From: Thermoanaerobaculia bacterium
Lineage (GTDB): Bacteria; Acidobacteriota; Thermoanaerobaculia; Thermoanaerobaculales; Sulfomarinibacteraceae
Assembly: GCA_027061805.1 (NCBI GenBank)
Contig: JAMOWA010000008.1
Span: 86 to 64,085 of the forward strand
Length of the DNA stretch: 64,000 bases
Direction: 5' to 3'
Both the position numbers and the translations under genes were made by a program. The notes under the pieces were generated by a model. The model made no database searches. It was not told the DNA's origin and worked only from the letters and a program-made list of their open reading frames with translations. Positions 18,406-40,400 of this stretch are shown here, piece after piece. Every line of letters begins with the position of its first letter. Position 1 is the stretch's first letter.

Positions 18406-18640
18406 GTGGTGGTGCTCGGGGACGACCACGCCTGGATCCTGTGCCGGCCAGGCTTTCCAGCCGGAGTCGCGGTGGACCCGGGGGAGGCAGGACCCGTGGT
18501 GGAGGTCCTGGGGCGCCTCGGCCTCGGTGCGGCCGGAATCCTGCTGACGCACCATCACGCGGACCACATCGTGGGGGCCGGCTCCGTGGCCGGGACCTTC
18601 CGGTGCCCGGTCCGTGGTCCGCCGGGCACAGCGATTGCAA
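18406..18640 (+). pseudogene. N-terminal remnant of hydroxyacylglutathione hydrolase (GloB, MBL fold), about 75 codons only
   Basis: VVVLGDDHAWIL..AVDPGEAGPVVEVLGRLGLGAAGILLTHHHADHIVG..CPVRGPPGT matches the first third of GloB, including THHHxDH. Similarity stops where the sigma54 promoter begins, and the remaining about 170 codons are absent. Confidence 0.6.
18624..18639 (+). promoter_or_regulatory. Candidate sigma54 (-24/-12) promoter P1
   Basis: GGGCACagcgaTTGCA: GG and GC at canonical spacing versus TGGCACG-N4-TTGCW. 25 bp upstream of ATG 18664. Confidence 0.55.
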
Positions 18641-18663
18641 GGAGCCGGACCGGGTGGTGCGAC

Positions 18664-18921
18664 ATGAAGCGATTTGCCAACAACGGCCGTTCCGGTGTTC
18701 CGACCTGCTCCTCGTGCCGGCACTTCTGTGACGATCCCCAGCGGTTGGAGAAGATGTTTGCGGGCATTCTGGTTCTCTCCTCCACCTACGGCTCCACGAG
18801 GGGAAGGGCCGGGGTCTGCGGCATCCACCAGAGGTTCCACGATCCCGAGCCGGCATGTTCCGATTTCGTACCACGAACCGGGTGTTTCCAGGAGGTGGCT
18901 CAGGATGTTACTGATCAGTAA
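18664..18921 (+). CDS. Small Cys-rich protein of unknown function (85 aa, six Cys)
   Basis: MKRFANNGRSGVPTCSSCRHFCDDPQRLEKMF...LSSTYGSTRGRAGVCGIHQRFHDPEPACSDF. First ORF after P1. In frame with the gloB remnant but unrelated to it. Confidence 0.5.
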   Translation: MKRFANNGRSGVPTCSSCRHFCDDPQRLEKMFAGILVLSSTYGSTRGRAGVCGIHQRFHDPEPACSDFVPRTGCFQEVAQDVTDQ

Positions 18922-18922
18922 C
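18907..18922. promoter_or_regulatory. GTTAC-N6-GTAAC palindrome (copy 1)
   Basis: GTTACtgatcaGTAAC. Overlaps the stop codon of the small Cys-rich ORF, 53 bp upstream of ATG 18975. Confidence 0.6.
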
Positions 18923-18974
18923 GTTGGGAACCCCGTGAAACCGTCCTTGTGCCCCGATTCACGAGGAGGACGCC

Positions 18975-21107
18975 ATGGCTGAACCCGCCGTGCGGCCGGT
19001 TTCGCCCGTCGAGTGGCACCCCCTGGGTCTTCCGGAGGGGCGGGAGCGCCCCGTGGAACGCCTCGCCCGGGAGATCCTCGAACGGTGCCGGGGTGAGGGT
19101 CCGGCCAACTGTGTCGCGCGCTGTCCGCTCCACGTGGACGCTCGGGGCTACGTCCAGCTGACGGCACAGGGGAAGTACCGGGAGGCCCTGCAGCTGGTCC
19201 GGGAGAGGCTGCCCTTTCCCGGCGTGCTGGGCTATGTCTGCGCCCATCCCTGTGAGGCCCACTGCAAGCGGATCGACGAGGACGAGCCTGTCAGGATCCG
19301 TGACATCAAGCGGTTTCTCGCCGAATGGGAGCCGGGCGAGCCGCAGCACCTCGTGGACTGCGAGCCCGACCGGGGACGCAGCGTGGCCGTGGTGGGGGCC
19401 GGTCCCGCCGGGCTCCTGGCGGCCCACGACCTCCGCCGGAGGGGATATGCGGTCACGGTGTTCGAACGGACCGACCGGATCGGTGGATGCCTCGTGTGGA
19501 AGATTCCGCCCTACCGTCTCCCCAGGAAGGTCGTGGAGCGGGACCTCTCGGTGATCGCGGCCCTGGGGATCCCCGTGGAGACGGGGGTCGAGGTGGGGGC
19601 AGACGTGGCGCTGGAGGAGCTCAGGGAACGCTTCGATGCGGTGCTCCTCCTGGTGGGGCGGGAGGGAGCCGTCCGGATCCTGTCCCACACCGACCCCGGA
19701 CTGGTGACGCCCGAGGGCCGTCTCCGCGTGGATCCCCTCACCTGTTCCACGGCGCTGGAGGGCGTGTTCGCGGGCGGTGACGCGGTGAGTGGCCCCGGGA
19801 CCGTGATCTCCGCGCTGGCGCTGGGCCGCAGGGCGGCCGGGTCCGCCATGAGGTTCCTCGAGGGGCGAGACCTCCAGGAGGATCGCGAGCCTCTGCTGCC
19901 CCCGAGACTGCTCTGGACGCTGGAGATCCCCGAGAGCGAACGGAAGCGCCGCCAGCGGACTCCGGTGATGCTCACGCCACCGCCACCTCCGCTCGACGAG
20001 GCTGCGGCGCGGGAGGAGGCGGAACGGTGCCTGGACTGCACCTGTGGCCTCTGCGTCCGGGACTGCGAGTTCCTCGAGGACCACTGCGACTCGCCGAAGG
20101 ACATCGCTCGGCGGGTGCTGGAGGATCCCGACGATCCCGGGGTGCTCAGGACCACCTATTCGTGCAACATCTGCTCGCTGTGCGCCGCGGTGTGTCCCGA
20201 GGGACTCGACACCGGGGCGCTCCTGCTGGAGGCCCGCCGGGAGGCCGTCCGCAGGGGCACGGGCCCCCTCCCGGTGCACAAGGGGATCGTGAGCTACTGG
20301 AAGGCCGGTGTGGGGAACACCTTCACCACCGTCATGCCGGAGCCCGGCCGCAGGACCAGCCGGCGGCTCTTCTTCACCGGGTGCGCGCTCCCCGCGGTCT
20401 CGCCGGCGAACACGCTCCGGATCTACGACGAGCTCAGGAAGCACTACCCGGGGACCGGCGTGATGATGTACTGCTGCGGGGCTCCGGTGGAGCTCCTGGG
20501 CATGGATGCGGAGTTCGACCGGACCCGCGAGGACATCCTCAGGCTTGCGGACCAGGTGGGTGCCGACGAGCTGGTGGCGGCATGCCCCGACTGTGCCCAC
20601 ACGCTGAAGGAGGCGGTCCCGGAGCTCACCATCACCACGGCATGGGAGCTGCTGGCTGGAAGGTGGCAGCCGCCGCGGCGCGAGGGTTCTCCGGCCGTCG
20701 CCATCCACGACTCGTGCAAGGCGCGGCACGCCCCGGAGATCACCAGCTCCGTCCGGAGGATCCTCCAGGACGGTGGCGCGGCCATCGAGGAGATCGAGTA
20801 CAACGGCGAGCTCGCGCGGTGCTGCGGCTTCGGCGGCATGATCTACCCGGTGGATCCCGAGCTCTCCCGGAGGGTCAGCCGCCGGAGGGCCGGGGAGACT
20901 CCCCTGCCCCAGGTGACCTACTGTGCGGGCTGCCGGATGGCCATCGCCGGGGTCGGGAAGCCGGCGGTCCACATCCTGGACTTCCTGATGAGCGATGACT
21001 GGGAGAAGGCGGCGGCGAAGAAGGCGCCGGGCTCCGTGACGCGGTATGCCAACCGTCTGAGAACCAAGTGGGCGTTCAGGCGGCTGAAGCCCCTCGCGAC
21101 GGACTGA
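18975..21107 (+). CDS. Fusion protein: GltD-like FAD oxidoreductase lacking the second (NAD(P)H) Rossmann domain + HdrC-like 2x[4Fe-4S] + HdrB/HdrD-like CCG domains
   Basis: N-terminus CVARCP..VCAHPCEAHC and VAVVGAGPAGL...GVFAGGDA. Centre CLDCTCGLCVRDC and CNICSLCAAVCP. C-terminus has CCG motifs MMYCCGAP and LARCCGFGG. Confidence 0.8.
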   Translation: MAEPAVRPVSPVEWHPLGLPEGRERPVERLAREILERCRGEGPANCVARCPLHVDARGYVQLTAQGKYREALQLVRERLPFPGVLGYVCAHPCEAHCKRIDEDEPVRIRDIKRFLAEWEPGEPQHLVDCEPDRGRSVAVVGAGPAGLLAAHDLRRRGYAVTVFERTDRIGGCLVWKIPPYRLPRKVVERDLSVIAALGIPVETGVEVGADVALEELRERFDAVLLLVGREGAVRILSHTDPGLVTPEGRLRVDPLTCSTALEGVFAGGDAVSGPGTVISALALGRRAAGSAMRFLEGRDLQEDREPLLPPRLLWTLEIPESERKRRQRTPVMLTPPPPPLDEAAAREEAERCLDCTCGLCVRDCEFLEDHCDSPKDIARRVLEDPDDPGVLRTTYSCNICSLCAAVCPEGLDTGALLLEARREAVRRGTGPLPVHKGIVSYWKAGVGNTFTTVMPEPGRRTSRRLFFTGCALPAVSPANTLRIYDELRKHYPGTGVMMYCCGAPVELLGMDAEFDRTREDILRLADQVGADELVAACPDCAHTLKEAVPELTITTAWELLAGRWQPPRREGSPAVAIHDSCKARHAPEITSSVRRILQDGGAAIEEIEYNGELARCCGFGGMIYPVDPELSRRVSRRRAGETPLPQVTYCAGCRMAIAGVGKPAVHILDFLMSDDWEKAAAKKAPGSVTRYANRLRTKWAFRRLKPLATD

Positions 21108-21118
21108 GGGAGGCGGGA

Positions 21119-23566
21119 ATGGGAGGTACGGTGACCATCACGGTGGACGGGCGGGAGGTGGAGGTGACACCGGGCAGGCTCCTGCTCGACGTCCTGAGGG
21201 AGCAGGGCATCCGGGTCCCGACACTCTGCCACGACGACCGCCTCAAACCCTACGGGGGATGCCGGCTCTGTGTGGTGGAGCGCAGGGACGGGCGTCCGGG
21301 GCTCGTGACGGCGTGCTCCACACCGGTCCAGCGGGGCATGATCATCGAGACATCGACCCCCGCCATCGACGAGGCGCGCCGACGCCAGCTCCAGCTGCTG
21401 GTGCTGGATCACCGCATGGAGTGCCCCACCTGCGAGCGGACGGGGGACTGCCGCTTCCAGGAGCTGATCTACGAGTACGGGATCCCGGAAGAACGCCTGC
21501 CCTTCGAGCGCCGGACCAGGCCGCGGGACGAGGGCTCCGCCGTGATCATCCGCGATCCGGAGAAGTGCATTCTCTGCGGCCGGTGCGTCCGGCTCTGCGA
21601 GGAGGTGCAGGGAGTGGCGGAGATCGGCATGGTGGGACGGGGCCTCGAGGCCCGGGTGGCCACGCTCCTCGACAGTCCGCTGGACTGCGAGTTCTGCGGC
21701 CAGTGCGTGAACGCCTGCCCCGTGGGGGCCCTGGTGGCCAGGCCCCACGCCACCGAGGTGCCCGCGTGGCTCCGCACGAGGGCCACCACCACCTGCTCCT
21801 TCTGCAGCTCGGGCTGCCAGGTGGAGGTGGAGACCTGGGATGGCCGGCTCCAGAACGTCACCGCCGACCCGGCGGCCGAGCCCAACCGGGGCAAGCTCTG
21901 CGCCAGGGGCTGGCTCGGATGGGACATCCTGGAACATCCCGAGAGGCTGACGACACCCCTGGTGCGCCGTGAAGGGCGCCTCGAGGAGGCCACCTGGGAG
22001 GAGGCGCTCGAGAGGGTCGCGGAGGCCCTCGGGGCGGCCCGTGACGGCGGCGGTGCGATCGCGGGCGTGGGGACGGCCCGCATGACCTGCGAGGACGCCG
22101 CCCTCTTCGGGCGGCTGCTGGCCGGGGAGCTGGGCGCCGCCACGGTGGAGGTGGGACCAACGGGTGGTGCGACGGCTCTGGCGGCCGGCATGGGGGCCGC
22201 CGTGGGTGCCGCGGCCTCCACCGCCACCTTCGAGGATCTTCGGGAGGCCGACCTGGTGCTGGTGCTGCGGGCCGACCCGGGCCGCACCCACCCCCTCGTC
22301 AAGACCGAGCTGGTCCAGGGGGCCGTCCAGAGGGGCCGTCCCTTCGTCCTGGCCCACTGTCTCTCGGGAGGTCTGGAGCGCCATGCGGCCGTTCACCTGT
22401 GCCTCCAGCCGGGGACCGACCACGTGCTTCTCCACGGAATGGCGCGTCTTGTGCTGGATCATCTCGACCGGACCCCCTCCGAGGGCACCGATGGCTTCGG
22501 GGCCTGGAGCGAGGCTCTCGGGGCCTACACACCCGATGTGATCGAACGGGTGACCGGGGTTGTCGAGGATGACCTCCGGGAGCTCGTGGACCGTCTTCTC
22601 GGGGCGGAACGCCCCCTGGTGGTGGTTCCCACCGGCCTCGGCATCCCCGGTGACGAGGCCCGGGTGGCCCGGGCCGCGGCGGAGCTCATGGGCCTGCTGG
22701 GCTGGAACGGAGCGCCCGGGGGCCGTGTGCTCGTGCTGGGGGAGAAGGCCAACCTGCAGGGCGTCCTGGCCTCCGGCCTGGGTCCCTCCCTCGGGGATGG
22801 GGAGCGCCGTCACCTCGAGGAGACCATGGCGGCGGCGGGCCTCGGACAGGTCCAGGTCCTCTACCTGGTGGGGGAGGACCCCGTGGGATCCTGGCCCCGG
22901 CGGTTCGCAGGGCGGGCCGCGGTCCGCGGAGCGCGTTTCGTGGTGGTGCAGGACGCCTTCGCCACGGCCACCACCCGCCTGGCGGACGTGGTGCTCCCCG
23001 TGGCGATCCTCGGGGAGCGCCGGGGGACGGTCGTGGGAGCGGACGGGGTCCCCAGGCGCCTCGAGAGGGTCCTGGAGCCGCCCGAGGGGCTGCCGCAGGA
23101 CGGCGAGCTCCTGGCCGCGCTGGCCGGGCGCCTGGGTGTGGATGTGGGGGACTGGCGGACCGCCGGGGCACCCGCGGCGACGGGGACCGATGCCCGCCCC
23201 GTGATCCGGTTCACACCGCCCGATCCGCCGGAGGAGATGCCACGCCACTCGGGCATGCTGCTGGACGCCTCCCCGCAACTGTTCCACTCGGGCCTGGTGA
23301 CGGCGTTCAGCGAGAGACTCCAGGAGCTGGCGCCCACCGTGGCCGCCCGCCTGGCGCCACGGGACGGACGGGAGGCCGGCATCTCCAACGGGGAGCAGGT
23401 CCGCGTGGCGGTGGACGGCAGGGAGCTCCTGCTCCGGGCCCGGTACGACCGGCGCGTCCGCCCCGGAACGGTGCTGGTGTCCTGGTCCGGTCTCGAAGAC
23501 GGTGCGGCCGGCGTCATGGACCACGATGCCGCTGCCACGCCTGCAGCCATCCGGAGGATGTCATGA
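21119..23566 (+). CDS. NuoG-like / HydA-FdhA-scaffold Fe-S subunit (2Fe-2S + 4Fe-4S clusters + degenerate molybdopterin-oxidoreductase fold)
   Basis: ATG 21119 (RBS GAGGGAGG). N-terminus ITVDGREV..CHDDRL..GGCRLC. Also HRMECPTCERTGDC, CILCGRCVRLC and CEFCGQCVNACP. Mo-domain cluster CSFCSSGC..KLCARG, but no recognisable Cys/Sec-His catalytic dyad. Confidence 0.8.
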   Translation: MGGTVTITVDGREVEVTPGRLLLDVLREQGIRVPTLCHDDRLKPYGGCRLCVVERRDGRPGLVTACSTPVQRGMIIETSTPAIDEARRRQLQLLVLDHRMECPTCERTGDCRFQELIYEYGIPEERLPFERRTRPRDEGSAVIIRDPEKCILCGRCVRLCEEVQGVAEIGMVGRGLEARVATLLDSPLDCEFCGQCVNACPVGALVARPHATEVPAWLRTRATTTCSFCSSGCQVEVETWDGRLQNVTADPAAEPNRGKLCARGWLGWDILEHPERLTTPLVRREGRLEEATWEEALERVAEALGAARDGGGAIAGVGTARMTCEDAALFGRLLAGELGAATVEVGPTGGATALAAGMGAAVGAAASTATFEDLREADLVLVLRADPGRTHPLVKTELVQGAVQRGRPFVLAHCLSGGLERHAAVHLCLQPGTDHVLLHGMARLVLDHLDRTPSEGTDGFGAWSEALGAYTPDVIERVTGVVEDDLRELVDRLLGAERPLVVVPTGLGIPGDEARVARAAAELMGLLGWNGAPGGRVLVLGEKANLQGVLASGLGPSLGDGERRHLEETMAAAGLGQVQVLYLVGEDPVGSWPRRFAGRAAVRGARFVVVQDAFATATTRLADVVLPVAILGERRGTVVGADGVPRRLERVLEPPEGLPQDGELLAALAGRLGVDVGDWRTAGAPAATGTDARPVIRFTPPDPPEEMPRHSGMLLDASPQLFHSGLVTAFSERLQELAPTVAARLAPRDGREAGISNGEQVRVAVDGRELLLRARYDRRVRPGTVLVSWSGLEDGAAGVMDHDAAATPAAIRRMS

Positions 23567-24174
23567 GCGAGCAGGTTCTGGAGCGGGCTCCGGCCCCGGC
23601 GGATCTCCCGGGCTTCTTCGGGGCCCACGAGCCGCTGCCCCGTGAGGATGTGGATCCGGCCATCTGGCCCTTCATCGACCGGTGGGTCGCGACCCATCGG
23701 GGTGGTCGGGAGCGCCTCATCCCGCTGCTTCACGCCATCCAGGAGCAGCTGGGATACCTGCCGTTCCCCGTCCAGGAGTACGTGGCGGAGAAGCTGGGCC
23801 TCTCGCCCATCCAGGTCTACGGGGTGGTGAGCTTCTACCACTTCTTCACCACCACGCCGCGGGGGAGGTACCAGCTCAAGGTGTGCATGGGAACGGCCTG
23901 CTTCGTCCGGCATGCCCAGAGCATCGTGGAGACCCTGAACGACGTGCTGGGGATCGGTGTGGGAGAGGTGACGGAGGACCGGATGTTCAGCCTGGAACAG
24001 GTGCGGTGCATCGGGGCCTGCGGCCTGGCACCCGCCATGATGGTCAACGACGAGGTGCACGGCAACCTGACGAGGAACGACGTGAGGCGGCTGGTCCGCC
24101 GCCTCCGGGCGAAGGAGCGCAAGGCGGCTGCGAAGGCTGCCGGGGAGGCCGACGGTGGCACGGACGAGCAGTGA
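23563..24174 (+). CDS. nuoE: NuoE/HydC-like thioredoxin-fold [2Fe-2S] subunit
   Basis: 203 aa. YQLKVCMGTACFVRH ... VRCIGACGLAPAMMVND, typical of the NuoE/HoxE/HydC family. Family-level call only. Confidence 0.85.
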   Translation: MSEQVLERAPAPADLPGFFGAHEPLPREDVDPAIWPFIDRWVATHRGGRERLIPLLHAIQEQLGYLPFPVQEYVAEKLGLSPIQVYGVVSFYHFFTTTPRGRYQLKVCMGTACFVRHAQSIVETLNDVLGIGVGEVTEDRMFSLEQVRCIGACGLAPAMMVNDEVHGNLTRNDVRRLVRRLRAKERKAAAKAAGEADGGTDEQ

Positions 24175-26065
24175 TCCGGCGGTGGCTCCGCGGCTGACAC
24201 CGGGGGACCTGGGACGGCTCCGGGAACGGATCCGGCCGGCGGTCCAGGAACGGCTGAGGTCGGAGCGCGGTGCCGTGCCCGCACGGCGGGAGGTGCTCGT
24301 CTGTGCCGGTGGGGCCTGTCTCTCCTGCCGGTCGGGGACGGTGGCCGAGGCCTTTGCCGCCGCCATCTGCGAGCGTGGCCTCGGCGAGCGGGTCCGCGTG
24401 GTGAACGTGGGGTGCATGGGCCTGTGCGAGGCGGGTCCCCTGGTGCTGGTCTCGCCGGACGGGGTCTACTACCCCAGGCTCGAGCCGGAGCAGGTGCCGC
24501 GCGTCGTCGAGGAGCACCTGGAGGGGAACACCCCCGTGGAGGAGCTGGAGCTGACATGGGAGGGGCCCGACGGGGAGGTCCTCCGGAGCCGGGACGTGCC
24601 CTTCTTCGCACGTCAGCTCAAGATCGCCCTGAGGAACTGCGGTGTCATCGATCCGGGGAGCCTGGAGGAGTACATCGCCATGGACGGCTACGCCGCGCTG
24701 GCGAGGGTGCTCCACGAGATGGAGCCGCAGGAGGTCCTGGACACGCTCAAGCGCTCGGGGCTCCGGGGCCGTGGCGGGGCCGGGTTCCCCGCCGGGCTGA
24801 AGTGGCAGTTCGTCCGCGACGCTCCCGGTGGCGTGAAGTACGTGGTGTGCAACGCCGACGAGGGGGACCCCGGCGCCTTCATGGACCGCAGCATCCTGGA
24901 GGGTGACCCGCACTCGGTCATCGAGGCCATGGCCATCGCGGGCCGCGTGGTGGGTTCGCGGAACGGCTACGTCTACGTGCGGGCCGAGTACCCCCTGGCC
25001 ATCGAGCGCCTGGAGAACGCGCTGGAGGCGGCCCGATCGGCCGGCCTGCTGGGCGAGGACATCCTGGGGTCGGGCTTCGGCTTCGACCTGGAGATCCGGA
25101 TCGGGGCGGGGGCGTTCGTCTGCGGGGAGGAGACGGCGCTGATGCACTCCATCGAGGGGCGCCGGGGCATGCCGAGGCCGCGCCCCCCGTTTCCGGCGCA
25201 GCAGGGGCTGTGGGGCAAGCCCACCCTGCTGAACAACGTGGAGACCTGGGCCAACGTCCCACCGATCCTCCTCCGGGGGGCCGAGTGGTACGCCGCCATC
25301 GGAACCCGCAGGAGCACGGGAACGAAGGTCTTCGCCCTGGCCGGAGACATCCGGAACACGGGGCTCGTCGAGGTCCCCATGGGCATCACCCTCAACGAGG
25401 TGGTGCACGAGATCGGCGGCGGAATCCGGACCGGCCTCCCGTTCAAGGCGGCCCAGAGCGGCGGACCGTCTGGGGGGTGCATCCCCTCGGACAGGGCCGA
25501 TGTCCCCATCGACTACGAGTCGCTCCAGGAGCTGGGCTCCATCATGGGTTCGGGCGGGCTGATCATCATGGACTCCACCACGTGCATGGTGGAGCTCTCG
25601 CGGTTCTTCCTGGACTTCCTGGTGGACGAGTCGTGCGGCAAGTGCCCACCCTGCCGGATCGGGACGCGGGTGATGCTGAACATCCTGGAGCGCATCACCC
25701 GGGGCGAGGCCTCGGAGGATGACCTGGATACCCTGGAGTCGCTGGGGCACCACATCCGGACCAGCTCGCTCTGCGGCCTGGGCCAGACGGCTCCCAACGC
25801 CGTGCTCTCCACGCTCACCCACTACCGGGAGGAGTACCTGGCCCACATCAGGGATGGGAAGTGCCCGGCCGGCAAGTGCAAGGCGCTGCTGACCTACACT
25901 ATCCTGGAAGAGGTGTGCAACGGCTGTGGTCTGTGCGCCAGGGCGTGCCCTGCGTCGGCGATCACGGGTGAGATCAAGCACGTCCACGTGATCGACCAGG
26001 ATCTCTGCATCCACTGCGGCGCGTGCCTCGGGGCCTGTCCCAGCGATGCCATCCTTGCGGAGTAG
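24155..26065 (+). CDS. nuoF: NuoF/HydB-like FMN/NADH-binding subunit with N-terminal [2Fe-2S] thioredoxin-like domain and C-terminal 2x[4Fe-4S] ferredoxin domain
   Basis: GLRGRGGAGFP, NADEGDPGAF, ESCGKCPPCR and SLCGLG core motifs. N-terminal VLVCAGGACLSC..VGCMGLCEAGP. C-terminal CNGCGLCARACP and CIHCGACLGACP. Exact start (GTG 24155) is uncertain. Confidence 0.85.
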   Translation: MARTSSDPAVAPRLTPGDLGRLRERIRPAVQERLRSERGAVPARREVLVCAGGACLSCRSGTVAEAFAAAICERGLGERVRVVNVGCMGLCEAGPLVLVSPDGVYYPRLEPEQVPRVVEEHLEGNTPVEELELTWEGPDGEVLRSRDVPFFARQLKIALRNCGVIDPGSLEEYIAMDGYAALARVLHEMEPQEVLDTLKRSGLRGRGGAGFPAGLKWQFVRDAPGGVKYVVCNADEGDPGAFMDRSILEGDPHSVIEAMAIAGRVVGSRNGYVYVRAEYPLAIERLENALEAARSAGLLGEDILGSGFGFDLEIRIGAGAFVCGEETALMHSIEGRRGMPRPRPPFPAQQGLWGKPTLLNNVETWANVPPILLRGAEWYAAIGTRRSTGTKVFALAGDIRNTGLVEVPMGITLNEVVHEIGGGIRTGLPFKAAQSGGPSGGCIPSDRADVPIDYESLQELGSIMGSGGLIIMDSTTCMVELSRFFLDFLVDESCGKCPPCRIGTRVMLNILERITRGEASEDDLDTLESLGHHIRTSSLCGLGQTAPNAVLSTLTHYREEYLAHIRDGKCPAGKCKALLTYTILEEVCNGCGLCARACPASAITGEIKHVHVIDQDLCIHCGACLGACPSDAILAE

Positions 26066-26074
26066 GGGGGGACC

Positions 26075-26455
26075 ATGGCGACCAAGACGATCCTGCTGGT
26101 GGACGACGACGAGATCTTCGTGGAGGCCGTCTCGGCGGTTCTCGAGGGACGGTACCGCGTGATCACGGCGGCAAACGGGACCGAGGGCCTGGCGAGGGTG
26201 CGGGAGGACCGTCCCGACCTCATCGTGCTCGACGTGATGATGGATCACCTCTCCGAGGGGTTCGACGTGGCGCGGAGCCTCAGGAACGACCCGGACCTGG
26301 CCGGGATTCCCATCATCATGCTGACGGGCGTGGACCAGGTGTACAACGTCCGCATGGAGGTGGACGAGTCCTGGGTGCCGTGCGAGAAGTATCTGGAGAA
26401 GCCCATCGCCCCCGATGAGCTCCTGGCGCACGTGGCCGAGCTGATCGGGGAGTGA
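26075..26455 (+). CDS. Stand-alone CheY-like receiver protein (no output domain)
   Basis: 126 aa. ILLVDDDE ... LIVLDVMM ... KP motifs. Confidence 0.85.
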   Translation: MATKTILLVDDDEIFVEAVSAVLEGRYRVITAANGTEGLARVREDRPDLIVLDVMMDHLSEGFDVARSLRNDPDLAGIPIIMLTGVDQVYNVRMEVDESWVPCEKYLEKPIAPDELLAHVAELIGE

Positions 26456-27975: not shown

Positions 27976-27991
27976 TGGTATGTCCCTTGCA
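27976..27991 (+). promoter_or_regulatory. Candidate sigma54 promoter P2
   Basis: TGGTATGtcccTTGCA, canonical GG-N10-GC spacing, 62 bp upstream of the rhodanese ATG. Confidence 0.65.
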
Positions 27992-32702: not shown

Positions 32703-32715
32703 GAAGGGGGTTGCC

Positions 32716-33558: not shown

Positions 33559-33580
33559 GCGCAGGGAACAGGGAGGCACC

Positions 33581-33970
33581 ATGGGCGCCACGATTCTGGT
33601 TGTGGACGACGAGCAGGATGTCAGGACCTATCTGAGGACGCTCCTGACCAAACAGGGGTACGAGGTGGTCGCGGCCGCCGACGGGGAGGAGGGCCTGGAG
33701 GTGGCAAGAGCCCGGCGCCCGGACCTCGTCTTCCTGGACATCATGATGCCCAGGAAGACCGGGATCATGCTCTACCGGCGCCTGAAGAAGGACCCCGATC
33801 TCGGAGGGGTGCCCGTGGTGATCCTCACGGGGCTCTCCCAGTACCGGACCTTCTTCGCCCAGGACTTCGAGGAGGTTCCCCGGCCGGAGGCGTTCGTGGA
33901 GAAGCCGCCCAACCGGGAGGAGCTGCTCCGGCTGGTGGAGGAGCTGGTCTCCACCCCGGCCGGCGGCTGA
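33581..33970 (+). CDS. Stand-alone CheY-like receiver protein (no output domain)
   Basis: 129 aa. ILVVDDEQD ... LVFLDIMMP ... KP motifs. Confidence 0.85.
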   Translation: MGATILVVDDEQDVRTYLRTLLTKQGYEVVAAADGEEGLEVARARRPDLVFLDIMMPRKTGIMLYRRLKKDPDLGGVPVVILTGLSQYRTFFAQDFEEVPRPEAFVEKPPNREELLRLVEELVSTPAGG

Positions 33971-33991
33971 TCCGGCTCCGAGGGGGGAGGC

Positions 33992-35122
33992 ATGGACAGG
34001 GCCGGGGACGACGGGACCACCGTCCGGTGGAACGGACCCACGGGGGGTGAGCTGAGGGTCCAGGCCGACCGGCTCTTCGACCTGGTGCCGAGCGCCATCT
34101 CGATCCAGGACAGGAACTACAGGATCCGGAAGGTCAACGCCGCCTTCCGGCGGATGTTCGGCGAGGGCGTGGGCGAGTACTGCTACTCGGCCTACAAGGG
34201 GAGGTCCAGGGTGTGCCTGGACTGCCCCATGGCGCGCACCTTCGCCGACGGCGGCGTGCACTCCTCGGAGGAGGTGGTCCAGACCGCCGCCGGGGAGGTG
34301 CTCCACGTGACCGTCCAGACCTCGCCGATCCTGGGGCCGGACGGGAGCGTGGTGGGGGGGATGGAGGTGATGACCGACCTCTCGGGGTCCACGGCGGTGC
34401 GGCAGGAGCTGGTCCTCCTGGGTCAGGCCATGGCCGGCATGGCGCACTACATCAAGAACCTGCTCACCGGGCTCGAGGGCGGGGTCTACGTGGTGGAGGA
34501 GGCCCTCGAGGACGGTGACGAGGGGCTTCTCCAGGAGGGATGGGAGATGGTGCGCCGGAATGTGGAGCGCGTCGCCCGCCTTTCCAGGGACCAGCTGTAC
34601 TGTTCGCGCGACCGGATGCCGGAGATCCAGCTCGTGGAGGTGAACCGGCTGGTCTGCCAGTCCGCCGAGCTCTACCGGGCCCGGGCGGAGCGGGAGGGCA
34701 TCGGGCTCCACGTGGAGCTGGACGAACGGATCGGGGCGGGGTGGCTGGACCCGGAGGGCTTCGACAACCTTCTCACCAACCTGCTGTCCAACGCCCTGGA
34801 TGCCTGCCGCTTCGACACCTCGAAGGAGCGTCACTGGGTCTCGGTGAAGACCCTCCTCGAGAGTGGCGGCCAGCTCCACCTGGAGGTGGCGGACAACGGC
34901 CAGGGGATCCCCGAGAAGCTCTGCGGCGCCGTCTTCTCCGAGATGTTCACCACGAAGGGGGGCGGAGGGACCGGCCTGGGGCTCCTGGTGGTCTACAGGG
35001 TGGTCTGTGCCCACAATGGCCGGATCACCGTGATGTCCGAGGATGGCGTGGGGACGGTGTTCACCGTGATCCTCCCCCTGGCGCCCCCGGGCGAGCGGTC
35101 GATGAATGTTACCGTGGAGTAA
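33992..35122 (+). CDS. Cytoplasmic PAS-domain sensor histidine kinase
   Basis: N-terminal PAS-like region (IQDRNYRIRKVNAAF..). H-box GMAHYIKNLL. ATPase boxes NLLSNALDA, DNGQGIP and GTGLGLLVV. Confidence 0.8.
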   Translation: MDRAGDDGTTVRWNGPTGGELRVQADRLFDLVPSAISIQDRNYRIRKVNAAFRRMFGEGVGEYCYSAYKGRSRVCLDCPMARTFADGGVHSSEEVVQTAAGEVLHVTVQTSPILGPDGSVVGGMEVMTDLSGSTAVRQELVLLGQAMAGMAHYIKNLLTGLEGGVYVVEEALEDGDEGLLQEGWEMVRRNVERVARLSRDQLYCSRDRMPEIQLVEVNRLVCQSAELYRARAEREGIGLHVELDERIGAGWLDPEGFDNLLTNLLSNALDACRFDTSKERHWVSVKTLLESGGQLHLEVADNGQGIPEKLCGAVFSEMFTTKGGGGTGLGLLVVYRVVCAHNGRITVMSEDGVGTVFTVILPLAPPGERSMNVTVE

Positions 35123-35123
35123 C
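35108..35123. promoter_or_regulatory. GTTAC-N6-GTAAC palindrome (copy 4)
   Basis: GTTACcgtggaGTAAC, overlapping the kinase stop codon, about 82 bp upstream of P4. Followed by an AT-rich stretch with overlapping palindromes caatcgattg/ttgaaattcaa (35147-35164). Confidence 0.6.
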
Positions 35124-35204: not shown

Positions 35205-35220
35205 TGGCACGGACATTGCT
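35205..35220 (+). promoter_or_regulatory. Candidate sigma54 promoter P4
   Basis: TGGCACGgacaTTGCT, an exact match to the TGGCACG-N4-TTGCW consensus, 44 bp upstream of ATG 35264. Confidence 0.75.
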
Positions 35221-35263: not shown

Positions 35264-36697
35264 ATGGAGGCGGAGATCCGTACCTTGCCGGAGGTTTCCC
35301 AGGATGTGCTGGCGTCTCTTCGGCCGCCGAGCCTGACACCGGAGAAGATCCAGGAGCGCCTCAGCTACATCATCGAGAAGGACCGCGTGGTGGGGGATCT
35401 GCCCCGGCGGTTCCTCGAGGCGTTCGCGGCGGTGCTCAAGCACACCAACTACCGCCAGGTGATCGACAACTATGCCAGGATACCGGCCCGCTGCGCCAAC
35501 TGCGCCTGTGCGTGCCAGATCTACCAGCAGACCCACGATCCGAAGGACGTGCCGTGCTACCGGTCGAACCTCCTCCTGGAGGTGTACCGGCGCCACTTCA
35601 CGCTCCGTGGGATCGTGGAGGGTCACCTGAGCGGGGCGCCGTTCCTGACGGACGACCTCATCCTGGAGATGGCCGAGACCTACTACCACTGTACGGCCTG
35701 CCGCCGGTGCACTCTCGAGTGCCCCCTGGGGATCGATCACGGCCTGGTCACCCACCTCGCCCGGTACGTGCTCTCGGAGATCGGGCTGGTTCCACGGGCC
35801 CTCGTGATCTCCACCAGGGAGCAGCTGGAGGGCCAGACCCGGAACACCTCGGCGATCCCGTGGCCGGCCATCGCCGACACCCTGGAGTTCCTGGAGGAGG
35901 AGATCAAGGACGACAAGGGTGTGGACGTGAAGTTCCCGGTGGACCAGCCGGGCCGGGAGTTCATCTTCTTCGCCCCCGTGTCCGACTACCTCATGGAGGC
36001 CGAGACGCTCATGGGGATCGCCGTGGTGTTCTACGCCACGGGGGCGATGGACTCCTGGACCATCTCCACCGAGTTCCTCGACGGCATCAACTACGGGCTC
36101 TTCTACAGCGACTGGATCCTGGAACGGTGCCTCAGGGAGGAGCTCGAGCAGCTCAGGAGACTCGAGGCCAGGAAGATCCTCATCGGGGAGTGCGGCCACG
36201 CCTCGCGGTCCGCCAAGGCGTTCATGCGGACCTTCGGCGGAGGGGAGAAGGCACCTCCGGTGGTGAACATCATGGAGTACACCTACCGGGCGCTCAAGGA
36301 GGGGAAGCTCAGGCTCGATCCCGACGTGATCAGCGAGCGGGTCACCTACCACGACCCCTGCAACCTGGCCCGGACGGGCTGGATCATCGACGAACCCCGG
36401 GAGATCCTGCGGTCCTTCTGCAGGGACTACGTGGAGATGGAGCCGCGGGGACAGTGGAACCTGTGCTGCGGCGGTGGTGGCGGGACCGTCTCGGTGGACG
36501 AGATCCGCCCCTACCGGACGGGGGTGACAGGCGTGAAGAAGGCGGAGCAGATCCGGGCCACGGGGGCCCACTACGTGGTGGCACCCTGTGCGAACTGCAA
36601 GAAGCAGCTCCGCGAGGTGTGCGAGGACAACGGCCTGGACGACGTGGAGGTGGTGGGCCTCCACGACCTCATCTACAAGGCCATCGTCCTGGAATGA
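35264..36697 (+). CDS. DsrK/HmcF-like (HdrD-type) Fe-S/CCG-domain subunit, module 2
   Basis: ATG 35264 (RBS GGGAGGGAG); the track ATG 35198 lies upstream of the predicted promoter elements (-24 element starts at 35205). CANCACACQ and CTACRRCTLECP motifs. CCG motif NLCCGGGGG. Confidence 0.8.
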   Translation: MEAEIRTLPEVSQDVLASLRPPSLTPEKIQERLSYIIEKDRVVGDLPRRFLEAFAAVLKHTNYRQVIDNYARIPARCANCACACQIYQQTHDPKDVPCYRSNLLLEVYRRHFTLRGIVEGHLSGAPFLTDDLILEMAETYYHCTACRRCTLECPLGIDHGLVTHLARYVLSEIGLVPRALVISTREQLEGQTRNTSAIPWPAIADTLEFLEEEIKDDKGVDVKFPVDQPGREFIFFAPVSDYLMEAETLMGIAVVFYATGAMDSWTISTEFLDGINYGLFYSDWILERCLREELEQLRRLEARKILIGECGHASRSAKAFMRTFGGGEKAPPVVNIMEYTYRALKEGKLRLDPDVISERVTYHDPCNLARTGWIIDEPREILRSFCRDYVEMEPRGQWNLCCGGGGGTVSVDEIRPYRTGVTGVKKAEQIRATGAHYVVAPCANCKKQLREVCEDNGLDDVEVVGLHDLIYKAIVLE

Positions 36698-36707
36698 GGA
36701 GGGCGTG

Positions 36708-37418
36708 ATGCTTGAGAGCTGGATCGAGCTGGCCCGCGGCCCCCTGCTGAGACTGGCCCTGCTGGCCATGGCGGTGGGACTGCTGCGTCAGGTGCTGCTC
36801 CAGGTCTGGGAGATCTCCTGGGCCTTCCACAGGGCGGGGGATCAGGTGGTGCCGTGGAGGGTGGCCCTCAGGAGAAACCTGGAGTGGCTGCTTCCCTGGC
36901 GCTATCTCCAGAGGAAGGAGCGGCGTGCCTACAACTTCACCTCCTTCCTGTTTCACGTCGGGGTGATCGCCGTTCCCCTGTTCCTGGCCGGGCACGTGGC
37001 CATCTGGAACCAGGAGCTGGGCCTGTCCTGGTGGACGCTGCCTCCCGCGGTGGCCGACTGGCTGACGGCGATCACCGTGGTGGCGGCGCTGGGGCTCCTG
37101 CTGGGGCGGATGGTGAACTCCGCCTCCAGGGTCATCAGCAAGTTCCAGGACTGGGCGCTTCCCGTGCTGTGCATCCTGCCGTTCGTGACGGGGTTCTGGG
37201 TGGCCCACCCCCTCTGGAGCCCCTTCGACGCGCAGGTGGTCTACCTGGTCCACCTGCTGTCCGCCGAGCTGCTCCTGATCCTGGTGCCGTTCTCCAAGCT
37301 CGTCCACATGGTCCTGTTCTGGGTGAGCCAGACCTCCAGCGAGCTCGGGTGGAGGTTCCCACCCGGCTCCGGTGAGCGGGTCAGGGTCACGCTCGGGAAG
37401 GAGACGGAGGGGATATGA
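36708..37418 (+). CDS. DsrM/HmcE-like (NarI-type) membrane heme-b subunit, module 2
   Basis: ATG 36708 (RBS GAGGAGGG). 236 aa, about 5 TM, with His in helices (FLFHVG, AGHVAIW, YLVHLL, KLVHMV). Confidence 0.7.
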   Translation: MLESWIELARGPLLRLALLAMAVGLLRQVLLQVWEISWAFHRAGDQVVPWRVALRRNLEWLLPWRYLQRKERRAYNFTSFLFHVGVIAVPLFLAGHVAIWNQELGLSWWTLPPAVADWLTAITVVAALGLLLGRMVNSASRVISKFQDWALPVLCILPFVTGFWVAHPLWSPFDAQVVYLVHLLSAELLLILVPFSKLVHMVLFWVSQTSSELGWRFPPGSGERVRVTLGKETEGI

Positions 37419-38245
37419 TCACGGATCCCTGCATCCTCAACGATGTCACCCGGTGTATCGGCTGCGAGGAGTGTGTGGCGGCGTGCAAGCGGATCAACGG
37501 ACTTCCGGAAGAGGACCCGCCGCCCAGGGTCGGCCAGTCGAAGGACGGCCTGTCCTCCACGAGGTGGACGAGCATCCTCCGGAGGACCGGGGGGGTCAAC
37601 GTTCGCAAGCAGTGCCGCCACTGCCTGGAGCCCGCCTGTGTCTCCGTGTGCCCCGTGGGCGCCCTGAAGAAGACGCCCGAGGGCCCGGTGGTCTACGACA
37701 AGAGCGTCTGCATGGGGTGCCGCTACTGCATGATGGGCTGCCCGTACGGCATCCCGCACTACGAGTGGAACACCGTCAATCCCTCCATCCGGAAGTGCAT
37801 CCTCTGCCACGAGAAGCTGAAGTCCGGGGAGATCGACCGTCCCGCGTGCGTGACGGCCTGCCCGAAGGAGGCCACGGTCTTCGGAAGCCGAGACGAGATG
37901 CTGGCCGAGGCCCGCCGCCGACTCGAGGCGGAGCCGGGCACGTACCTCCAGCACATCTGGGGGGAGCACGAGGTGGGCGGCACCTCGGTGCTGTACATCT
38001 CCCACGTGGACCTCGGTTTCCTGGCCTGGCAGGATCCGAAGTTCCTGGGGGTGGAACCCCTGCCCGAGCGGACGTGGAGCGCCCTGAAGAAGGTCCCCTT
38101 CGAGTTCGTGGGCATGGCCACCTTCATGACCGCGGCCTGGTGGATCATCGACCGCAGGATGCGGCTCCAGGGAGAGGAAGGTGCCGGTGGGGACCGTGAC
38201 CACGACGAGCCCGGCGGCTCCGCAGACGAGGGAGGCGAACAATGA
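37415..38245 (+). CDS. DsrO/HybA/FdnH-like 4x[4Fe-4S] ferredoxin subunit with C-terminal TM anchor and no N-terminal signal peptide
   Basis: The first cluster motif CIGCEECVAAC begins at residue 14. Further motifs CRHCLEPACVSVCP, CMGCRYCMMGCP and CILCHEK..ACVTACP. C-terminal helix FEFVGMATFMTAAWWII. ATGA overlaps on both sides. Confidence 0.8.
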   Translation: MITDPCILNDVTRCIGCEECVAACKRINGLPEEDPPPRVGQSKDGLSSTRWTSILRRTGGVNVRKQCRHCLEPACVSVCPVGALKKTPEGPVVYDKSVCMGCRYCMMGCPYGIPHYEWNTVNPSIRKCILCHEKLKSGEIDRPACVTACPKEATVFGSRDEMLAEARRRLEAEPGTYLQHIWGEHEVGGTSVLYISHVDLGFLAWQDPKFLGVEPLPERTWSALKKVPFEFVGMATFMTAAWWIIDRRMRLQGEEGAGGDRDHDEPGGSADEGGEQ

Positions 38246-40083
38246 CCCGGCGGGTCCAGATCACCAAGGGGATCCTGTGGTTCATCTCGGGGCTGGCGGC
38301 GGCCGTGACCATCGTCCGGTTCACCCGGGGCCTCGGTACCACCACCGCGCTCTCGGACACCACGCCGTGGGGACTCTGGGTCGGTTTCGACGTGATGGGC
38401 GGCGTGGCCCTGGCGGCGGGCGGATTCGTCATCGGCGCCATCGCCCACGTCTTTCAGAGGGAGCGCTACCACCACGCGGTGCGGCCGGCGATCCTCACCG
38501 CGCTGCTGGGCTATGCTGCGGTGGCGGTGGGGCTGATCTACGATCTCGGTCTCCCGTGGAACATCTGGCATCCGCTGATCTTCTGGAACCCCCACTCGCC
38601 GCTCTTCGAGGTGGCCTGGTGCGTGATGACCTACCTGGGGATCCTGTTCCTGGAGTTCCTGCCGGTGTTCCTGGAGAGGACCCGTTTCCAGGCGCTGTAC
38701 CGGACCCTGCTGCGCCTCCAGCTGCCGCTGATCATCCTGGGAATCTCGGTATCCACGCTCCACCAGTCGAGCCTGGGGACCCTCCTGCTCATCATGCCCT
38801 TCCGGCTGCACCCGCTCTGGTACACGCCCCACCTGCCGGAGCTGTTCTTCGTCTCCGCCATCTGCCTGGGGCTGGTGATGGTGATCTTCGAGTCCTCGGT
38901 GACGGCCTGGCTGTACGAGCGGGAGCCCCACACCGACATGCTCGCGGGGCTCTCCCGCTTTGCGGCGGGTGCCCTGGCCTTCTACCTGGCCTTCCGGTTC
39001 TTCGACCTGTGGCACCACGGCAAGCTGGGCCTGGCCTTCGAGAACACCTTCGAGGTGCGCCTCTTCTGGTTCGAGATCGCCATCAGCGCGGTGATCCCGC
39101 TGGTCCTGTTCCTGATTCCCCGCGTTCGCAGGAGCCACACGGGGGTGTTCATCGCGGCAGCCCTCGGCGTGATGGGCTTCCTGCTCAACCGCATCGACGC
39201 CTCGGGTCTGGCCCAGGTGTGGGCCACCGGCGCCGACTACTTCCCCGAGTGGACCGAGTTCGTGGTCAGCTTCGGGATCGTGTCGTTCTTCGCACTGATC
39301 TACCTCTTCATCCAGGAACACTTCCCGGTGGAGAAGGAGATCGTGGACGAGGAGGAGAGGTGGCTGCAACGCCAGCTCTTCGTGCTGCCCCGTTTCGACA
39401 GGGGCTCCCAGGTCTGGCTCGGTGATGCGACCTTCGCCTCCCGCAGGGTGTACTCGGCTCTCTTCGTGGTGGCGCTGGTGGTGGGGCTGGCGCTCACGCC
39501 GTGGCAGCCGCTCGTGAAGGCCTCGCCGGTGCAGCGGGCCCGGGGCGGCGAGATGCTCCGTGTGGGCTACCCCCTCGGCACCGTCATGTTCCCCCACGGG
39601 GAGCACATCACGCGGCTGGGGAAGGAGGCCTGCGGGACCTGCCACCACCTCCACAAGCCCGGCGACGTGGGGACCCCGTGCTCCGAGTGCCACGCGGACC
39701 TCTACCTGGACACCACGATCTTCGATCACGTGCGGCACGTGGCGGTCCTGGAGGGCAACGCCTCCTGTGCGAAGTGCCACCCGGAGGGGCAACCCAAGGT
39801 CCGTGCCACGGCCAGGAAGTGCTCCTCGTGCCACGAGAAGGACATGATGGCCGCCAACACCGTGGCGACCCGGTTCGAGAGCCTCGCGGCCCCGGGCCTG
39901 CGGCGGGCGGCCCACGGGATCTGCATCGAGTGCCACCGGAGGGAGGCGGCCAACCCCGAGTGGAAGAAGCCGGACCTCTTCCGCTGCGCCACCTGCCACA
40001 AGACCCCCGTGCCCCACGTGCAGGAGCTCCGGCTCCTCCGGGCGGAGGGCGGGGAGACCGCTCCGGTCGCAGCGGGTTCGTGA
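38242..40083 (+). CDS. Fusion: DsrP/HmcC-like NrfD-family membrane subunit (about 10 TM) + linker TM + C-terminal hexaheme cytochrome c domain
   Basis: 613 aa. NrfD/PsrC-like N-terminal 400 aa. Extra TM VYSALFVVALVVGLALTPW. Six CxxCH motifs: CGTCH, CSECH, CAKCH, CSSCH, CIECH and CATCH. Confidence 0.8.
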   Translation: MTRRVQITKGILWFISGLAAAVTIVRFTRGLGTTTALSDTTPWGLWVGFDVMGGVALAAGGFVIGAIAHVFQRERYHHAVRPAILTALLGYAAVAVGLIYDLGLPWNIWHPLIFWNPHSPLFEVAWCVMTYLGILFLEFLPVFLERTRFQALYRTLLRLQLPLIILGISVSTLHQSSLGTLLLIMPFRLHPLWYTPHLPELFFVSAICLGLVMVIFESSVTAWLYEREPHTDMLAGLSRFAAGALAFYLAFRFFDLWHHGKLGLAFENTFEVRLFWFEIAISAVIPLVLFLIPRVRRSHTGVFIAAALGVMGFLLNRIDASGLAQVWATGADYFPEWTEFVVSFGIVSFFALIYLFIQEHFPVEKEIVDEEERWLQRQLFVLPRFDRGSQVWLGDATFASRRVYSALFVVALVVGLALTPWQPLVKASPVQRARGGEMLRVGYPLGTVMFPHGEHITRLGKEACGTCHHLHKPGDVGTPCSECHADLYLDTTIFDHVRHVAVLEGNASCAKCHPEGQPKVRATARKCSSCHEKDMMAANTVATRFESLAAPGLRRAAHGICIECHRREAANPEWKKPDLFRCATCHKTPVPHVQELRLLRAEGGETAPVAAGS

Positions 40084-40165
40084 CACCTCCGGTGGCTGCC
40101 GTCCCCGGGTCCGCCGGGGACGGCTCCGCGGACCCGGGGACGGTGGGGAGCCGGCCACTCCGGGT

Positions 40166-40181
40166 GTTACGTATCGGTAAC
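40166..40181. promoter_or_regulatory. GTTAC-N6-GTAAC palindrome (copy 5)
   Basis: GTTACgtatcgGTAAC, about 204 bp upstream of P5. Confidence 0.6.
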
Positions 40182-40274
40182 CATGCCGGGAGAATCGGCG
40201 TCCCGGGGCGGACCCCCGAAGCCAGAGGAGCCTGTGTCAACAACTCACCTGTTTTGAGATAGTTGGACTTCACT

Positions 40275-40290
40275 GTTCCGATCTCGTAAC
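40275..40290. promoter_or_regulatory. Degenerate copy of the palindrome (GTTCC-N6-GTAAC)
   Basis: GTTCCgatctcGTAAC, one mismatch, about 95 bp upstream of P5. Confidence 0.4.
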
Positions 40291-40384
40291 ACCCTGCGGT
40301 GAGCCCACTTTCCCCGTCCGGAACATGTCAGCTCAAATCTTGCTCTGTCAACCATATAGGAGTGCATATCCGGGGCCGGGGCAC

Positions 40385-40400
40385 TGGCACATGGGTTGCA
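40385..40400 (+). promoter_or_regulatory. Candidate sigma54 promoter P5 (YeiH-like/dsrABD unit)
   Basis: TGGCACatgggTTGCA, exact TGGCAC-N5-TTGC, 50 bp upstream of ATG 40450. The track ATG 40396 lies inside the promoter. Confidence 0.75.

Follow-up and report, generated by a model that had tools for sequence, protein, structure and literature searches.

What switches on the sulfite reduction genes of an acidobacterium? The question is raised by 64,000 nucleotides of an uncultured Thermoanaerobaculia genome (assembly GCA_027061805.1, contig JAMOWA010000008.1, positions 86 to 64,085 of the forward strand), called the window below, whose central 31 kb hold a dissimilatory sulfite reductase (dsr) cluster, the island, with every gene on the + strand; the genes were assigned by Pfam/NCBIfam domain searches. 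The original prediction, read from the letters alone, was that each transcription unit of the island starts at a -24/-12 promoter of the sigma-54 (RpoN) type, so that dsrAB and its electron-transfer partners would be gated by an enhancer-binding protein (EBP). Such gating is supported by the conservation of the promoters, by the palindromes paired with them and by EBP genes adjoining dsr genes in sister lineages. The claim that every unit is so equipped goes too far: five units are fronted by a sigma-54 site, but the unit at 44752-49808 (dsrL, dsrN, dsrC) is not. We propose, at a probability of roughly three in four, that the five units (small open reading frame (ORF) plus GltD/HdrD-NuoGEF-like; rhodanese-dedA; dsrMK-like-HEAT-REC-HK, the last two standing for receiver domain and histidine kinase; dsrKMOP-like; yeiH-dsrABD) would form one sigma-54 regulon under a single EBP, which would act at the palindrome GTTAC-N6-GTAAC, would be encoded elsewhere and would probably resemble OrpR of Desulfovibrio vulgaris.

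Promoters of the sigma-54 class follow the consensus mrNrYTGGCACG-N4-TTGCW, depend absolutely on an AAA+ activator and are typically served from an upstream activating sequence (UAS) some 80-150 bp away. The five elements of the island, with their scores on a weighted sigma-54 matrix and their mismatches to TGGCAC-N5-TTGC, are:

P1, GGGCACAGCGATTGCA, 18624-18639, + strand; 14.0 bits, one mismatch
P2, TGGTATGTCCCTTGCA, 27976-27991, + strand; 18.0 bits, two mismatches
P3, CGGCACGAATCTTGCT, 30121-30136, + strand; 14.3 bits, one mismatch
P4, TGGCACGGACATTGCT, 35205-35220, + strand; 18.7 bits, exact consensus
P5, TGGCACATGGGTTGCA, 40385-40400, + strand; 18.6 bits, exact consensus

All five 16-mers were verified at these positions on the coding strand with exact GG-N10-GC spacing, P4 and P5 matching TGGCAC-N5-TTGC letter for letter as had been claimed. 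The prediction had also expected well under one such match by chance, and the exact consensus in fact occurs three times against 0.07 expected. Against 300 first-order Markov simulations of the window, which also provided the expectations for the palindrome, matrix matches of at least 14 bits number 7 (0.67 expected) and those of at least 18 bits 3 (0.02 expected). P1-P5 all rank within the top eight matrix matches on both strands, and seven of these eight are intergenic and face a gene start, the eighth being at 32683. Looser patterns are not enriched in the window, be it the bare GG-N10-GC (1463 found, 1496 expected) or the consensus with up to two mismatches (47 found, 49 expected), so that P2 could not be supported by mismatch counting alone. 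The high-scoring site at 32683 was considered as an internal promoter for the HEAT gene and rejected, being coding sequence whose GG is absent in orthologues.

The elements are also well placed with respect to genes. Element and start codon are separated by 24 nt at P1 (ATG 18664), 61 at P2 (ATG 28053), 53 at P3 (ATG 30190), 43 at P4 (ATG 35264) and 49 at P5 (ATG 40450). The good Shine-Dalgarno sequence announced for each first gene is present at P2-P5; at P1 it is weak. The promoters had further been used to discard ATG starts at 35198 and 40396; these codons are GTG and TTG, mechanical ORF starts, but the argument itself holds, and the downstream choice is backed by the homologues of the 35264 protein (477 aa) and by ENA gene calls of 477 and 548 aa. 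With GG and GC 10 nt apart, an above-chance frequency and a sense position before gene starts, P1-P5 qualify as predicted RpoN-class promoters on every count that can be taken at the level of sequence.

Are these elements maintained by selection? Relatives were compared through 80 loci with relatives of the DsrK-like protein at 35264, three loci reached via the GltD/HdrD-like protein, and more found by DNA pattern scan; the three (L085-L087) came from homologue look-ups, a metagenome scan with the GltD/HdrD protein alone having returned nothing. Across 32 orthologous promoter sites from at least 12 genomes, information is confined to TGGCAC and TTGCA, the spacer and 30 nt on either side being near 0 bits. 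A P4 counterpart precedes the 35264 orthologue throughout the closest clade (L001-L009, 70-84% protein identity), with spacers that differ among its members (GGAGA, GGGTG, GTCGC, ATCTC, AGCAG, GACGG, CCCGC). P5 is kept before yeiH or dsrA in L001-3, 5, 6, 9, 18-22 and L207, and among the matches listed a P5-type site stands before one of these genes in 27 metagenome loci. In L002 and L005 the rhodanese gene is preceded by the TGGTAC variant of P2, and in L001 a counterpart of P3, with a palindrome, stands before the dsrM-like gene. The small ORF or leader has a P1 site 39-42 nt ahead of it in L085, L086, L087, L002 and L003. Even the class-specific variants are inherited, TGGTAC/T at P2 and a non-T first position at P1. 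Conservation limited to -24/-12 is the footprint expected of a functional promoter, and one that a repeat or mobile element would not be expected to leave. A short N-terminal remnant of yeiH persists between a P5-type promoter and dsrA in L207 (9525-9800) and also in L153 and L191, which accounts for the 180-290-nt dsrA leaders of the yeiH-less lineages.

The second component of the proposed regulon is the palindrome GTTAC-N6-GTAAC. The window holds five exact copies and one with a single mismatch, all six inside the island; 0.0 exact copies were expected, and none arose in the simulations. Together with a degenerate copy they are as follows, offsets being counted start-to-start from the promoter element:

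GTTCCGATTTCGTACC, 18857-18872; degenerate, two mismatches, identical in sequence and offset in L085
GTTACTGATCAGTAAC, 18907-18922; exact, 283 nt downstream of P1 and 53 nt before ATG 18975
GTTACACGACGGTAAC, 27855-27870; exact, 121 nt upstream of P2, within the 3' end of the kinase gene
GTTACGATCCGGTAAC, 29977-29992; exact, 144 nt upstream of P3
GTTACCGTGGAGTAAC, 35108-35123; exact, 97 nt upstream of P4
GTTACGTATCGGTAAC, 40166-40181; exact, 219 nt upstream of P5 (-218 to -228 in relatives)
GTTCCGATCTCGTAAC, 40275-40290; one mismatch, 110 nt upstream of P5

The spacing is conserved along with the sites. The P5-type offset stays between -109 and -113 in each of nine genomes, the P4-type offset is -88 to -103 in nine of ten relatives, and a palindrome with at most one mismatch lies within 330 nt in 31 of 32 promoter regions, the exception being P4 of L006 with a two-mismatch copy at -103. 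By chance a promoter region would carry 0.0005 exact copies, or 0.007 with one mismatch. At P2, P4 and P5, AT-rich 30-nt tracts (at least 60% A+T, above the 99th percentile of the window) separate the palindrome from the -24 element. Two sigma-54 sites outside the island have no GTTAC palindrome nearby and would on that ground belong to other activators. We read GTTAC-N6-GTAAC as the candidate UAS of a single EBP.

Which EBP might that be? The prediction that none is encoded in the island is correct for 18.6-49.8 kb by six-frame motif search, and the sole EBP of the window lies at 62613-63959 (+), with the architecture PAS-AAA+(GAFTGA, PF00158)-HTH_8. It was rejected as the dsr regulator: it lacks PAS cysteines, carries GAFTGA and not the GAFTDA of the dsr-linked family described below, is 38% identical to that family, has no GTTAC palindrome nearby and possesses a divergent sigma-54 promoter of its own, which it most likely serves. 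That promoter, TGGAACGCTTCTTGCT at 62450-62465 (-), lies upstream of an operon with a 135-aa ORF, an acyl-CoA dehydrogenase and an AMP-ligase; a TTGCA-N4-TGCAA inverted repeat is found at ~62637-62650, and hypCDE follow beyond the right end of the window. The other outside site, TGGCACGGCTCTTGCG at 3967-3982 (-), is an exact consensus 27 nt before a 747-aa secreted FecR/DUF6600 protein (1696-3939, -) and is presumably served by another activator. A complete sigma-54 activator gene and two further high-scoring sites in the window speak for the use of sigma-54 by this genome.

A candidate is suggested by sister lineages. Metagenome contigs were scanned with the composite pattern GTTAC-N6-GTAAC-N70-100-TGGCAC-N5-TTGC, giving at least 120 matches; among the matches listed, 28 stand directly before yeiH (18), dsrA (9) or a DsrK-like gene (1), and in 11 dsr loci with readable upstream DNA a co-oriented EBP gene ends 17-375 nt before the palindrome. 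The same succession of EBP, palindrome, promoter and dsrAB is seen on an acidobacterial contig of 66% G+C (L207), with the promoter 110 nt past the palindrome. Its gene order is dsrK-J-O-P, REC, HEAT, REC, kinase (opposite strand), EBP, palindrome, promoter and dsrABD, followed by x, dsrL, dsrN, x, TPR and dsrC, as in the dsrL-dsrC unit of the window. The dsr-linked EBPs measure ~453 aa and combine PAS, AAA+ and HTH_8 domains, with GAFTDA replacing GAFTGA and an invariant motif RCC[DE]VF-x3-IC-x3-C (C-x8-C-x3-C). Among the best 120 database homologues, 118 carry the cysteine motif and 117 GAFTDA; composite matches outside dsr loci, among those listed, carry ordinary GAFTGA EBPs. Members of the Cys-PAS family also adjoin DsrKMOP-like operons that bear sigma-54 sites in Zixibacteria, Ignavibacteria, Kryptonia and further Acidobacteriota, and in clade B the UAS repeats read GTTGCA/TGCAAC, one base from GTTAC/GTAAC.

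Two side observations belong here. In clade B loci, an extra gene stands between the sigma-54 promoter beside the Cys-PAS EBP and the dsrK-like gene and is the first to be driven by that promoter, a HTH_17/MerR-like protein with a Cys-rich tail in L011 (9441-9878) and an unrelated 255-aa protein in L038 (9077-9844). The composite pattern is found too before ~175-aa proteins with a twin-arginine signal (L090, L092, L100, L104, L122, L124, L134, L148, L155, L168, L170, L175, L179, L180, L188, L199, L203), before NrfH-like cytochromes (L133, L166, L204) and before DsrO-like/molybdopterin operons; these loci have GAFTGA EBPs or none and may represent unrelated regulons or chance.

The dsr-linked EBPs are not without precedent. 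In D. vulgaris Hildenborough, OrpR activates the divergent orp operons with sigma-54 and IHF (integration host factor), and its PAS domain holds a redox-sensitive [4Fe-4S] cluster with ligands C52/C61/C65 and D/E54 (PMC8359166). The dsr-linked proteins share with OrpR the PAS-AAA+-HTH_8 order, the C-x8-C-x3-C spacing and an acidic residue at +2 after the first cysteine. A palindromic UAS common to divergent operons is likewise found in L018-L022, L002 and L003, and an anaerobe's redox-gated on/off switch is, by analogy, what may be proposed for the dsr regulon; a Fe-S cluster and redox sensing would then be predicted for the dsr-linked EBPs as well. There are differences: the OrpR site is GGGCGYRTTTTGCGCCC and that of the dsr regulon GTTAC-N6-GTAAC, OrpR targets orp genes only and not dsr, and the dsr-linked EBPs carry GAFTDA. 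Moreover, a Cys-PAS EBP encoded with its targets, as in the OrpR case, occurs in the 11 metagenome loci and in L207 but not at the locus in the window.

We therefore envisage, as a working model, that sigma-54 holoenzyme would occupy -24/-12 as a closed complex, that an EBP hexamer bound at the palindrome would loop to the promoter, perhaps helped at P2, P4 and P5 by the AT-rich tract, and that ATP hydrolysis by the EBP would open it. Since one EBP would open all five promoters, the five units would act as one on/off regulon. By analogy with the sister lineages this EBP would probably be of the PAS(C-x8-C-x3-C)-AAA+(GAFTDA)-HTH_8 type, a candidate Fe-S redox sensor, and by analogy with OrpR it would respond to low redox potential. 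Further input or feedback may reach it from the REC and histidine kinase genes that end two of the operons. What the sequences show directly is the elements with their statistics and conservation, and the EBP genes that adjoin them in relatives. Binding by sigma-54 and by the EBP, the identity and signal of the latter and the boundaries of the transcripts are all predicted here from the arrangement of the DNA. The layout resembles that of glnAp2 under NtrC and nifH under NifA, with GG and GC 10 nt apart, an extended consensus, a UAS ~100-150 bp upstream and a bendable AT-rich tract. It differs from them in its targets (respiratory sulfite reduction in Acidobacteriota), in a UAS sequence that is new and in the palindrome ~280 nt downstream of P1.

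Several observations weigh against a single EBP-driven regulon. The dsrL-dsrN-dsrC unit has no sigma-54 site in the window, nor is there one before dsrL in relatives, which means that control of the pathway is not exclusively by sigma-54. The matrix behind the scores was weighted so as to approximate the published consensus and is no trained model, and P1 and P3 reach only ~14 bits and lack an AT-rich tract. The IHF consensus WATCAANNNNTTR finds no convincing match. A six-frame search revealed no RpoN box in the window, nor does rpoN occur in ~12 kb of extra flank, and a cognate EBP did not turn up in that stretch either: the flanks carry no further EBP over ~8 kb on the left (L083) and ~4 kb on the right (L082, with hypCDE). 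Picking out this genome's dsr-type EBP from the best 120 homologues by amino-acid composition led to two contexts, both other genomes in which the EBP adjoins dsrAB. Further promoters of the sigma-70 type may also exist, a scan with the E. coli-type sigma-70 consensus having returned no sites and being uninformative for this phylum. The remaining points concern P1: a downstream palindrome is unusual for natural sigma-54 promoters, and the flavoprotein operon may have another promoter that went unrecognised.

P1 was said to front an operon. A gene start does follow it, but the first gene is the 85-aa ORF at 18664-18921 and not directly the large operon. The P1 palindrome at +283 falls at the 3' end of this ORF, and the same geometry (+270 to +283) is seen in L085, L086 and L087, the last of which keeps promoter and palindrome without conserving the ORF. 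In L002 and L003 the small ORF sits at another locus, divergent from yeiH, with the palindrome upstream at -87 and -168. Either P1 would be governed by a natural downstream enhancer, with read-through into the 9-kb operon, or the operon would have a second promoter that uses the same DNA-binding protein. EBP sites downstream of the promoter are known from the FlbD ftr enhancers of Caulobacter flagellar genes and from engineered NtrC/NifA sites, which resemble the arrangement proposed for P1 and differ in EBP and regulon.

The most probable of the alternatives is that P1 would serve the 85-aa ORF or a leader only, and the GltD/HdrD-NuoGEF-REC-HK operon would have a promoter of another class near 18922-18974; sigma-54 dependence would then not extend to each unit in the range of the original prediction. 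The palindrome indeed lies just 53 nt from ATG 18975 with no sigma-54 match in between, and the small ORF behaves as a separable unit, since in L002 and L003 it is found elsewhere behind a sigma-54 site of its own; the retention of P1 and palindrome by L087, whose ORF is not conserved, is counted on the same side. Yet there is no terminator-like hairpin between 18921 and 18975, a weak scan found no sigma-70-like site, and the succession of P1, ~270 nt, palindrome and ATG recurs in four genomes whose proteins are 66-96% identical, suggesting that it works as a single module. On balance we consider a separate promoter for the flavoprotein operon unlikely, though well within reason.

A second alternative, which we regard as improbable, accepts the sigma-54 promoters and takes the palindrome for the operator of some other protein (a repressor, a response regulator fed by the island kinases, or a CRP/FNR- or Rex-like factor), the EBP binding elsewhere or acting from solution. 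Position at P1 would suit it, with the palindrome placed between small ORF and flavoprotein ATG, where an operator, or a class I/II activator site of an unrecognised sigma-70 promoter, could be placed; the island also has two REC/HK pairs and no output domain. In Desulfovibrio, in addition, predicted Rex repressor sites are found at the sigma-70 promoters of dsrABD and dsrMKJOP (PMC4045070). These are the same pathway genes (dsrAB, dsrD and those of a DsrMK(J)OP-type complex) under a redox-linked logic, but the motifs differ, and Rex repression of sigma-70 there would be replaced here by obligatory sigma-54 activation. What speaks for an EBP site is the fixed offset of ~-90 to -145 from -24 at 26 P2-P5-type promoters, which is classical EBP geometry, the specificity to dsr loci of a Cys-PAS EBP gene adjoining the palindrome, and the position of clade B EBPs beside the related GTTGCA/TGCAAC repeats. 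A sigma-54 promoter moreover needs an EBP to fire, and no other conserved upstream block is visible.

That P1-P5 are chance matches or relics without promoter function is strongly disfavoured and scarcely credible: the missing enrichment of the two-mismatch consensus and the plainly coding, non-conserved site at 32683 would agree with it, but exact and high-score matches are 10 to 100 times as numerous as expected, each of the five elements has positional orthologues in many genomes that share just the functional bases, each is accompanied by a palindrome of which a region should hold 0.0005 copies, and a blind composite scan of metagenomes returned, among the matches listed, 28 dsr promoters.

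Returning to the regulon under a single EBP, what would it control? The window (~69% G+C) has its homologues in Acidobacteriota (Thermoanaerobaculia, Vicinamibacterales), and a near-identical contig exists in ENA assembly ERZ27262658, whose independent gene calls match the start codons used here. The predicted transcription units and their boundaries are:

18664-18921, + strand: 85-aa Cys-rich small ORF immediately 3' of P1, without a Pfam or NCBIfam family
18975-27903, + strand: operon of GltD/HdrD-like flavoprotein, NuoG-like, NuoE-like and NuoF-like proteins, REC and PilS-like histidine kinase (Pfam)
28053-29882, + strand: operon of secreted rhodanese and DedA/VTT membrane protein (domains and gene calls)
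29911-29934: hairpin closing the rhodanese-dedA unit
30190-35122, + strand: operon of DsrM-like, DsrK-like and HEAT proteins, receiver domain and PAS histidine kinase (domains)
35264-40083, + strand: operon of a second DsrK-like and a second DsrM-like protein, DsrO-like protein and DsrP fused to a multihaem cytochrome c
40450-44689, + strand: operon of YeiH-family membrane protein, dsrA (42152-43345), dsrB and dsrD-like gene
44699-44729, + strand: intrinsic-terminator-like hairpin after dsrD, with a 14-bp stem and T run, ending the P5 unit
44752-49808, + strand: unit of a 147-aa gene, dsrL-like, dsrN-like, HEAT, TPR and dsrC genes, without a sigma-54 site

With dsrA, dsrB, dsrC, dsrD, a DsrMK(J)OP-type complex, dsrL and dsrN, the window holds what defines a dsr gene cluster. 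The dsrA product has NIR_SIR domains, dsrB is identified by tblastn (73-84% identity to orthologues) and an ENA gene call, DsrC by PF04358, dsrL as GltD-like and dsrN as CobB-like; the dsrD call draws on synteny and homology, dsrD having no Pfam match. The two DsrK-like proteins score 278 and 344 bits, both under the NCBIfam cut-off of 400 bits, hence the name. There is no separate dsrJ in the island, which has two DsrMK-like pairs; in place of DsrJ stands the C-terminal cytochrome c fusion, with six CxxCH motifs, of the DsrP-like NrfD membrane protein (38242-40083). At 18975-26065 a GltD-like flavoprotein fused to HdrD-type CCG domains is followed by NuoG-, NuoE- and NuoF-like subunits, a module that is widely kept across Acidobacteriota and looks like an NADH-linked, possibly bifurcating, disulfide reductase co-regulated with dsr. 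Synteny of the 18975-27903 operon is kept in L085-L087, L002 and L005. The small ORF before it is 68-69% identical to homologues in L002 and L003, and L086 has a gene call of 85 aa for it. Just upstream, a truncated gloB-like metallo-beta-lactamase gene (18403-18621) aligns only to residues 18-90 of the 269-aa L085 orthologue, the alignment stopping 3 nt before P1, so that a deletion explains why this remnant abuts the promoter.

Further from these subjects, hexanucleotide tandem arrays, (GTCCGT)n or (CACGGA)n with up to 44 copies, lie at 606-1148, 9909-9970 and 51660-52194 and give low-complexity VTVSVS/GHGHGH-type frames on both strands. ARAGORN calls a tRNA-Pro(CGG) at 46673-46748 (-), antisense within the dsrL-like coding region; Rfam has nothing there, and the call is probably a false positive of G+C-rich DNA. 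As Rfam gave no match anywhere in the window, the leaders are not known riboswitches.

How does this compare with what is known? Through NrfS-NrfR (cited in PMC8359166), D. vulgaris, an anaerobe, places a terminal respiratory reductase, that for nitrite, under sigma-54 and an EBP with two-component input; NrfR is a REC-type EBP encoded beside its target, whereas the REC proteins of the island lack an output domain and the EBP family of the relatives is PAS-type. The main text of the D. vulgaris sigma-54 regulome paper contains neither dsr nor sulfite reductase (PMC4641369), neither Acidobacteria nor dsr figures in a survey from 2025 of sigma-54 regulons across phyla (PMC12316311), and genomic papers on dsr-carrying Acidobacteriota discuss neither promoters nor sigma factors (PMC6018796, PMC8528874). 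Our literature search found no paper linking sigma-54 to dsr. Within the searchable literature, sigma-54/EBP control of dsr is thus undescribed; the class of mechanism is textbook, the proposed regulon and its enhancer word are new.

The Thermoanaerobaculia dsr lineage makes up a large share of the unclassified dsrAB in marine sediments (PMC8528874), and a sigma-54/EBP architecture implies tight all-or-none control of the pathway with essentially no basal expression. Concrete parts can be named, namely the five promoters, the enhancer word of 16 bp and a family of candidate redox-sensing activators, and metagenomes can be searched for co-regulated genes with the composite DNA pattern. This pattern would also help to predict when these organisms respire sulfite, which bears on the reading of dsrAB transcripts in sediments and peat. 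All this is useful and testable for sulfur-cycle microbiology rather than a new principle. A broader generalisation, to which we give distinctly less than even odds, is that wherever dissimilatory sulfite reduction occurs beyond the classical Desulfobacterota, namely in classes of Acidobacteriota and in Zixibacteria, Ignavibacteria and Kryptonia, its master on/off switch could be an OrpR-type Fe-S-PAS EBP together with sigma-54, acting through one enhancer word, GTTAC-N6-GTAAC or GTTGCA/TGCAAC, the downstream enhancer of P1 included. If true, this switch would coordinate dsrAB with two DsrMK-type complexes, a rhodanese and an NADH-linked flavoprotein complex, and would explain how facultative organisms silence the pathway under oxidising conditions.

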